Virus record (IMG/VR): IMGVR_UViG_2713896786_000017
Origin: a virus
Lineage: Duplodnaviria > Heunggongvirae > Uroviricota > Caudoviricetes
Direction: 5' to 3' (one strand)
DNA length: 23,509 nucleotides
The translations under genes were made by a program, and so were the position numbers. The notes beneath the pieces are model-generated. The model was not told the origin of the DNA and searched no databases. It was given only the letters and a program-made list of their open reading frames with translations. Below are positions 18,929 to 19,440 of the stretch, in pieces. The number at the start of each line of letters is the position of its first letter. Positions within the stretch are counted from its first letter, which is position 1.

Positions 18929-18938
18929 GGAGGATGTT

Positions 18939-19334
18939 GTGGAAAAAACAGTTAATAGCGATTTGCATTTAGGTCAGTACTGGAGAATAGACATTGTATG
19001 CGATCCAGAACTTCGAGATGAGGTTGGGCAATATTTTTCTCTACACGATGTTGGTTTTAGCAAAATTGAAGTTTTTTCCGTCGAAAATCCATATAAACTT
19101 GCTCTATTCTTTGATTTCGCGAAGAAGGGTGTGGAGGTTGCAAAAGCCATTATGGGACTCTTAGACCGAAATGATATTGAAATAACGATGTATCGTGCTA
19201 CGGACAGTAGCCCGCAGTCTGTAAAAAGCATCAAATTGCGTAAGTCTGAAGACGTAGAGAAATGTAAAGATTTGCTTAGTACGTGTGTTGCAATTGGCGT
19301 TCAACGAAATAAGGAAAAAGAGGGGAGTGAATGA
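18939..19334 (+). CDS. AT-rich orphan gene (131 aa), unknown function, between int and the host junction
   Basis: In-frame GTG at 18939 with AAGGAGG 5 nt upstream (track ORF begins at a TTG at 18918). Visibly lower GC than flanking DNA; no recognisable domain. Confidence 0.5.
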   Translation: MEKTVNSDLHLGQYWRIDIVCDPELRDEVGQYFSLHDVGFSKIEVFSVENPYKLALFFDFAKKGVEVAKAIMGLLDRNDIEITMYRATDSSPQSVKSIKLRKSEDVEKCKDLLSTCVAIGVQRNKEKEGSE

Positions 19335-19440
19335 TCCACAAAGTGACCACATCCCTGTTATTTGTTGTGGTTGGCTGTGTTTTTGTGTGTCTGTAAGTCT
19401 TTGATAATTATCTAACTTATTGATTTTTGTTTGTGTTTAT

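Follow-up and report, generated by a model that had tools for sequence, protein, structure and literature searches.

A 23,509-nucleotide stretch of viral DNA (IMG/VR record IMGVR_UViG_2713896786_000017; the window hereafter, at its full length) contains DNA of a P2-like prophage that lies between the host genes ihfA and btuC, and directly 3' of the prophage's integrase gene (int) it carries ORF131, an open reading frame (ORF) of 131 amino acids (aa) which we found to be a genuine, selected accessory ("moron-type") gene of this prophage. ORF131 is located inside the element and immediately outside attP, being neither host DNA nor a remnant of another element, and it fills a swappable slot of approximately 415 bp that is bounded by the last int codons on the left and by the outermost Int arm repeat on the right. 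Taken as a whole, its best explanation, which we put forward tentatively, would be that of a selected accessory gene in the lysogenic operon encoding a protective binding protein. The kind of locus has already been described; the protein family of ORF131 is uncharacterised and has no Pfam model.

A selected prophage gene beside the attachment site

The earlier note on this DNA had described a 131-aa ORF with a strong ribosome-binding site (RBS) directly 3' of int, in AT-rich DNA and lacking a recognisable domain, and these observations were borne out by the RBS itself, by a coinciding RefSeq coding sequence (CDS), by the base composition and by searches of Pfam, NCBIfam and PADLOC (no matches) and of PHROGs, where the gene belongs to a family without assigned function. 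The ORF list held a longer form (18918..19334, + strand, 138 aa, TTG start). We place the start at GTG 18939 because the motif AAGGAGG lies 5 nt upstream, overlapping the int stop codon TAA (18926-18928), because the same start is used in RefSeq for WP_000416308.1 (a "hypothetical protein" of E. coli O104:H4 2011C-3493, whose DNA is 100% identical over window positions 18700-19700) and because the ATG of the Salmonella orthologue falls in the same alignment column. The GC content of ORF131 is 0.392, with 0.336 at third codon positions (GC3), and both values are below those of int (0.491 and 0.531) and btuC (0.554 and 0.574), so that in base composition ORF131 is unlike the neighbouring phage genes.

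The prophage comprises genes for portal, terminase, capsid and tail proteins, a gpA-type replication endonuclease, ogr, the repressor and int. The 25 nt of its att core at the btuC side (attR) are duplicated at attL (L004 1139-1163) with two mismatches in the loop, and the empty site carries the attR version. Since the same hairpin and T tract are found at attL, attR and the empty site, the att core is the intrinsic terminator of ihfA; the hairpin was matched in a terminator scan and folds with -11.6 kcal/mol (z = -2.8). The btuC side was matched in all of 5426 complete E. coli genomes, those without ORF131 typically matching only from window position 19441 onward, and the empty site, read in one K-12-like O16:H48 strain, has the sequence ...ctaactaaaaaGGCCGCTCTGCGGCCTTTTTTCTTTTCACTG.... 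Thus the assignment of ORF131 to the phage side of the junction stood, and the gene is not ordinary host sequence upstream of btuC, as it is absent from empty-site strains. The earlier suggestion of a remnant of another element did not hold, since ORF131 is contiguous with int and then with the phage's own attP arm, and since the order cI-int-ORF-att is kept in Salmonella and at another att site by greA.

The stop codon of ORF131 directly abuts the outermost putative Int arm-type repeat of attP. The repeat sequence TCCACAAAGTGACCACAT is kept in the O104 window, in Salmonella (L005) and in E. coli strain 96_1414B, which has different cargo, and the P' arm at attL has a similar repeat pair, TCCACGATGTGTCCACAT. 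Between the arm repeats and the att core the IHF consensus is matched twice, and by analogy with the layout of P2 attP we infer that the repeats and these matches are Int arm sites and IHF sites, respectively.

Comparison of E. coli with Salmonella gave a protein identity of 60% for ORF131, with a synonymous divergence (dS) of 1.28 and a ratio of non-synonymous to synonymous divergence (dN/dS) of 0.24. The corresponding values were 83%, 1.26 and 0.08 for int, whose synteny is the same in both, and 57%, 1.38 and 0.26 for the repressor. A dN/dS of 0.24 at this divergence shows that ORF131 is under purifying selection, and with orthologues at 60-77% identity in prophages of E. coli and Salmonella the possibility, raised in the earlier note, of an ORF lacking conservation and coding signal is removed. 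The supposed recent acquisition was also not supported: the dS of ORF131 equals that of int, which marks the gene as long resident, not as a newly gained moron.

Exchangeable cargo and the spread of the family

To read the slot we used window positions 18400-19440 (the int 3' half, ORF131 and the P arm) as a query against the 5426 genomes. The int/P-arm lineage was found in 306 of them, 158 of which cover the query fully. ORF131 alone was found in 159 genomes, as a single copy and on chromosomes only, and all eight of the loci read were at btuC. Approximately 148 of the 306 have the same int/P arm without ORF131, and those examined hold other cassettes. Homology to these other-cargo prophages, in which the int 3' half is 98-99% identical and the P arm the same, ends at about 18915-18920 in the last int codons and restarts at about 19331-19333 at the ORF stop (matching ranges 1-516/521 and 932/934-1041 of the query). 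Hence a passenger gene at the att-proximal end, as the earlier note had proposed, is what we observe, with slot content exchanged between phages of near-identical int 3' half and P arm.

In other sampled genomes the slot holds, within identical boundaries, an unrelated cassette that exists in three versions and differs from ORF131 in having two genes, one of them membrane-anchored. The first gene encodes a zinc-ribbon-like protein whose three versions have 127, 132 and 166 aa, with 24-25% identity between the 132-aa protein and either of the others, and the second encodes a coiled-coil, apparently membrane-anchored protein that is DUF1640- or XhlA-like. Profile comparison showed ORF131 and the cassette proteins to be unrelated (hhalign probability < 1%), and in PADLOC the cassette had no convincing match, only weak coiled-coil ones; judged by its sequence, it is a second candidate system. 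Different cassettes occur beside near-identical repressor alleles, so that shuffling of the cassette is independent of immunity.

The position of ORF131 corresponds to the int-att interval described as a minor hotspot that holds 3% of the defence systems of P2-like prophages and was called atypical (PMC13586616, NAR 2026); defence cargo between int and att is also found in phage-inducible chromosomal island (PICI) satellites (PMC13586616), and a third P2 hotspot lies between a tail gene and CI (bioRxiv 10.1101/2024.10.15.618418). Our data confirm the variability of the cargo in the int-att interval, and ORF131 shares with that hotspot both its position and its variable, exchangeable, phage-mobilised content. 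The published counts, however, are of recognised defence systems, and ORF131 matches none (PADLOC, 0 matches). Like the P2 morons old/tin (between gpA and gpQ) and Z/fun (tail), ORF131 is low in GC, dispensable and replaced in relatives, although it lies at another locus and has no sequence similarity to them. The P2 morons are expressed in the lysogen, which for ORF131 is predicted, and exclusion is a demonstrated phenotype of Old, Tin and Fun, whereas ORF131 is a candidate. Furthermore, a textbook moron has its own promoter and ORF131, by consensus scan, does not. In the P2-like Pseudomonas phage phiCTX the gene ctx, encoding a secreted pore-forming toxin, lies beside attP. Both ctx and PICI cargo are, like ORF131, passengers directly beside the attachment site, without homology to it, and in contrast to the secreted ctx product the ORF131 protein is predicted from its sequence to be cytoplasmic.

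The label of an orphan or singleton did not survive wider searches, as ORF131 belongs to a family of approximately 60 clusters, nearly all of whose readable contexts are P2-like prophages. It matches PHROG 14142, a family without functional annotation, over its full length (E 2.9e-70, 235 bits, positions 1-128 of 128). When 1.84 billion representative proteins were searched exhaustively with a profile, no more than 17 matches came back, of which about 11 were real, and a broader profile yielded the approximately 60 protein clusters, all "hypothetical", all without Pfam domains and all from Enterobacterales. The genera represented are Escherichia, Salmonella, Citrobacter, Enterobacter, Klebsiella, Raoultella, Yokenella, Kosakonia, Pectobacterium and Yersinia. 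Some clusters occur on hundreds to more than 1000 contigs, and the family is common in prophages of Salmonella, Klebsiella, Citrobacter, Enterobacter and Yersinia. ORF131 itself is present in approximately 3% of complete E. coli genomes, including O104:H4, O111, O26 and the enteropathogenic strain EPEC E2348/69. Truncated alleles are few (P0002, P0004, P0006 and P0007; about 20 truncated against 180 sequences in the main cluster), and in one genome (H148) the copy, which is unannotated, is shorter than the query by one base and may be frameshifted. A tblastn search with ORF131 of 72,556 plasmids and a scan of species-representative genomes gave no match, and a literature search for WP_000416308 returned no paper.

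We compared about ten loci with readable flanks, in which the family gene (orfX) adjoins attP either on the int side or on the ogr/hok side. The first architecture, with the order repressor, int, orfX, att and host DNA, is found at btuC in E. coli, in E. coli GF60 and in Salmonella, where the repressor-int-ORF-att-btuC order is identical, and at greA with a 46%-identical relative. In the second, host DNA and att are followed by orfX (+), an optional hok/gef (-), ogr (-), gpD (-) and the tail sheath gene (+). This arrangement is found in Yersinia, in Klebsiella-type viral contigs and in metagenome contigs, with a remnant in Pectobacterium; repeats of the TCCAC...CCAC arm type precede orfX, and the same prophage end, found at two host sites (L053, L054), places the boundary of the element over 310 bp upstream of orfX. 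Two Salmonella loci, at raiA and dsbB, begin with host DNA, orfX and hok and continue with tail genes that are less clearly of P2 type; no ogr or gpD was seen at either. An Enterobacter contig ends too soon for its architecture to be classed, and a 1.3-kb contig without a visible prophage has one member flanked by an insertion sequence (IS) fragment and lptE.

In the circular genome of a P2-type phage, int and ogr converge on attP. Given this convergence in the P2 map, both architectures would by analogy read as one circular order, int -> (attP) -> orfX -> (attP) <- hok <- ogr, with the position of attP as the sole difference. In the O104 prophage hok/gef and ogr are located at attL, and consequently, in the circular form, ORF131 and hok point towards one another from opposite sides of attP. 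The hok/gef type I toxin gene lies there between attL and ogr (L004 1423-2014, outside the window), and in Yersinia (L047 5558-5707) and Salmonella (L053 5534-5674) hok/gef is convergent with the orfX homologue. One Yersinia strain has a PemK-type toxin-antitoxin pair between the host gene mlaA and the orfX homologue (L048 4127-4737), which is absent from a second Yersinia strain (L047); this difference suggests that cargo has also been exchanged on the ogr side of att.

Protein, predicted expression and possible roles

The product of ORF131 is a 14.9-kDa protein with an isoelectric point (pI) of 5.3 and a grand average of hydropathy (GRAVY) of -0.37, in which no signal peptide or transmembrane segment was seen by eye. 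Searches of Pfam, NCBIfam and PADLOC with ORF131 and 11 diverse family members gave nothing consistent. Of two AlphaFold2 models, with predicted local distance difference test (pLDDT) scores of 72 and 79, the better one was obtained from a 12-sequence alignment (pLDDT 79, predicted TM-score 0.72) and has the topology b1(14-21) a1(23-35) b2(40-44) b3(52-59) a2(60-75) b4(80-87) b5(95-99) a3(106-113) b6(116-123), where b denotes strands and a helices. In this model the fold is a generic ferredoxin-like core with a C-terminal beta-alpha-beta extension. Foldseek searches of PDB and BFVD gave nothing below E 0.01, with TM-scores of at most 0.44, and the best E-value in a PDB sequence-profile search was 0.23. 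Hence the structure prediction proposed in the earlier note delivered a ferredoxin-like model, although no significant structural neighbour or functional match. PII-like/DUF3240 proteins, CutA, RsfS/Iojap and eL22 share 4-13% sequence identity with ORF131 and lack its extra beta-alpha-beta unit; likeness at the level of so common a fold does not imply a shared function. Among 46 full-length members the most conserved residues are H10, C21, C45, C109, A68, M72-G73-L74, R77-N78-D79-x-E81, T88, K99-L100-R101 and D105, and this pattern would allow a metal site made up of H10, C21, C45 and C109. A Citrobacter member is labelled "PDDEXK family nuclease" in one source. We rejected this label, as 11 members gave no Pfam or NCBIfam match to it at E-values up to 5 and no nuclease was found among the structural neighbours. 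An acidic DNA mimic was likewise dropped because the net charge is near neutral in most family members.

A consensus scan found no promoter-like site on the + strand between int and ORF131, the RBS of ORF131 lies over the int stop, and the sole terminator downstream in a terminator scan is the att-core hairpin, all of which points to probable co-transcription of ORF131 with int. By the consensus scan ORF131 is not an autonomous transcription unit with its own promoter and terminator. The repressor-like gene would be the first of a rightward lysogenic operon running on into int and ORF131, and ORF131 would be the last cistron of the repressor-int lysogenic transcript, which would end at the att-core hairpin as the likely terminator; the ihfA terminator, which is retained, would limit read-through into btuC. 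Given that the gene follows the repressor and int, the ORF131 protein should be made in the lysogen. It would be a small soluble alpha/beta (ferredoxin-like) protein without a recognisable catalytic domain, most likely a binding protein whose benefit to the lysogen lies in its interference with phages or satellites that enter the cell, either through superinfection exclusion or through defence.

Such a protective, anti-phage or anti-satellite role is a possible reading of the sequence to which we attach rather low confidence. It is favoured by the hotspot location, the deviant composition, the mutually exclusive alternatives in the slot and the hok/gef neighbour in the circular map. Several observations weigh against it. 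No homology to known defence, exclusion or anti-defence proteins was detected in PADLOC-DB v2 with ORF131 and 11 members (0 matches), and the gene has co-diverged with int (dS 1.28 versus 1.26). Moreover, where flanks are readable the family is found almost only in P2-like prophages and beside attP, while defence genes typically move between elements of many kinds. The window allele has Val at the 96%-conserved Cys45. Finally, tblastn with three family members found the gene in none of 50,697 phage genomes; the int lineage of ORF131 is missing from the same collection, and for this reason the absence of the gene from sequenced phages is probably a sampling effect.

The constant adjacency to attP would be explained if the protein tuned Int recombination there, as a non-essential modulator of the efficiency or directionality of integration and excision. 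The ORF131 stop directly against the first arm-type repeat would suit this role, and so would the location of the gene in other genera, where arm-type repeats directly precede it on the ogr side, its constant co-orientation with int in the circular map, its occurrence almost only with P2-family integrases and its dS equal to that of int. We nevertheless consider it unlikely, since int 3' halves of 98-99% identity occur, together with the same P arm, beside unrelated cassettes, which makes ORF131 dispensable for the Int/attP pair, since ORF131 has no helix-turn-helix (HTH) or other DNA-binding signature and since the phage already has a cox/apl-like gene. An excisionase or directionality factor in the strict sense was rejected: there was no HTH match, the pI is 5.3, and prophages lacking ORF131 can have the same int 3' half and attP. 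Another role of low probability is that of a lysogenic-conversion factor acting on host physiology (stress, metabolism or colonisation) and not on other phages, possibly as a small regulator or ligand binder with a fold of the PII/ACT-like class.

Expression from the lysogenic promoter just after infection would also allow a counter-defence or establishment factor, serving genome survival or commitment to lysogeny. The circular order cI-int-(attP)-orfX, found in all architectures, makes expression in the establishment phase possible, and a small protein without an enzymatic domain would be compatible with it. This is quite improbable in view of the near-neutral net charge across the family, unlike DNA-mimic anti-restriction proteins, of the missing homology to known anti-defence proteins and of the rarity of anti-defence genes in P2-like prophages (28 elements; PMC13586616). 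Very improbable is a functional partnership with the neighbouring hok/gef type I toxin locus, which the convergence of orfX and hok/gef in Yersinia and Salmonella prophages brings to mind, as does the circular O104 phage, where attP alone separates ORF131 from hok; several members have no hok nearby (L006, L040, L055), and Hok systems are self-contained and controlled by antisense RNA. A toxin-antitoxin module was rejected, as ORF131 is a single gene between int and attP with no adjacent partner pair. A non-functional ORF, whether arisen by chance, ordinary host DNA or the remnant of another element, can be set aside with near certainty. The few truncated alleles and the possibly frameshifted copy in H148 would agree with it, whereas the absence from empty-site strains, the dN/dS of 0.24, the contiguity and conserved synteny with int and attP, the ratio of 180 main-cluster sequences to about 20 truncated ones and a family in at least 10 genera rule it out.

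For the family at large we also considered a gene specific to P2-like phages that always adjoins attP and whose transcriptional wiring is set by its side of attP. On the int side, as here, orfX would stay in the repressor-int operon in the circular and integrated forms alike, and on the ogr side integration would cut it off from that operon. The product might then be an establishment factor sensing the integration state, or a new single-protein immunity against competing P2-like phages or P4-type satellites, in either case possibly with a zinc-binding fold lacking a characterised relative; we regard this as a speculative idea with only a small chance of being right.

Returning to the protective binding protein that we tentatively favour, the slot has recently been recognised as a defence hotspot of P2-like prophages, in which ORF131 alternates with a second uncharacterised cassette, and both are cheap, well-defined candidates for phage challenge. 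Should ORF131 have no anti-phage phenotype, it would be one more conserved hypothetical prophage gene. In addition, a family that occurs on either side of attP offers a handle on the reshuffling of int/att modules around cargo.

Coordinates and other features of the prophage

Table 1. Features around ORF131; positions refer to the window unless a locus is named.
Feature	Position	Strand	Remarks
ORF131, cargo gene, 131 aa	18939..19334	+	GTG start, TGA stop 19332-19334; RefSeq CDS, PHROG 14142 match
Shine-Dalgarno AAGGAGG of ORF131	18927..18933	+	read from sequence; overlaps int stop
Exchangeable cassette	18916..19331		homology breaks versus prophages with other cargo
Two-gene cassette examples	L002 3072-4001; L011 1137-1812; L014 6535-7573		slot equivalent to 18916-19331
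Cox/apl-like DNA-binding gene	17223-17501	-	divergent from repressor-like gene
Repressor-like HTH gene, 103 aa	17593..17904	+	Pfam HTH_3 2e-10; RefSeq helix-turn-helix protein
Tyrosine integrase (int), P2 type, 324 aa	17954..18928	+	Pfam Int_N 1.5e-28, Phage_integrase 5.3e-20
Putative Int arm-type repeats, attP P arm, TCCACAAAGTGACCACAT	19335..19352	+	conserved across prophages
Two IHF-consensus matches	19394-19406, 19413-19425	-	regex WATCARNNNNTTR; consensus match only
att core, attR copy	19441..19465	+	ihfA intrinsic terminator hairpin GGCCGC-TCT-GCGGCC + T tract
btuC, host gene flanking prophage	19524..20504	+	RefSeq annotation

The int lineage of this prophage occurs in 5.6% of complete E. 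coli genomes despite its absence from the phage collection, in which the best match to window positions 17954-19470 was 318 bp long and the others about 170 bp, all in the conserved catalytic region at 70-78% identity. Downstream, a promoter-like site for btuC (19463-19491) is kept behind the att core. A search of Rfam with positions 17400-19700 gave sub-threshold matches only, among them a weak match to the enterobacterial small RNA STnc540 (19400-19523; 22.5 bits against a gathering score of 38) that spans the P arm, the att core and the btuC leader.

Near the ogr end (L004 2208-5560, outside the window) a truncated gpD-like gene has an IS5-like ISKpn26 and a DUF3800 gene as neighbours; given the insertion and the truncation, the O104:H4 prophage is probably defective. 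On the host side, within positions 22656-23509, the ydiV ORF has 197 aa compared with 237 aa in RefSeq 2011C-3493, and it abuts an IS1 InsB fragment (23243-23509, - strand), which suggests that an IS1 insertion truncated ydiV; in that case the window would derive from a strain other than 2011C-3493. A 610-base query across this junction had no contiguous match, the top matches being in two to three pieces spanning about 970-1400 bases. Within the window, an actin-type plasmid partition pair of ParM (PF06406/PF21523) and a ParR-like protein (PF10784) at 9145-11139 (- strand), accompanied by two further ORFs without assigned function (9145-9408 and 9410-9841), fills the classical gpA-gpQ (old/tin) hotspot, an unusual cargo for an integrating phage.
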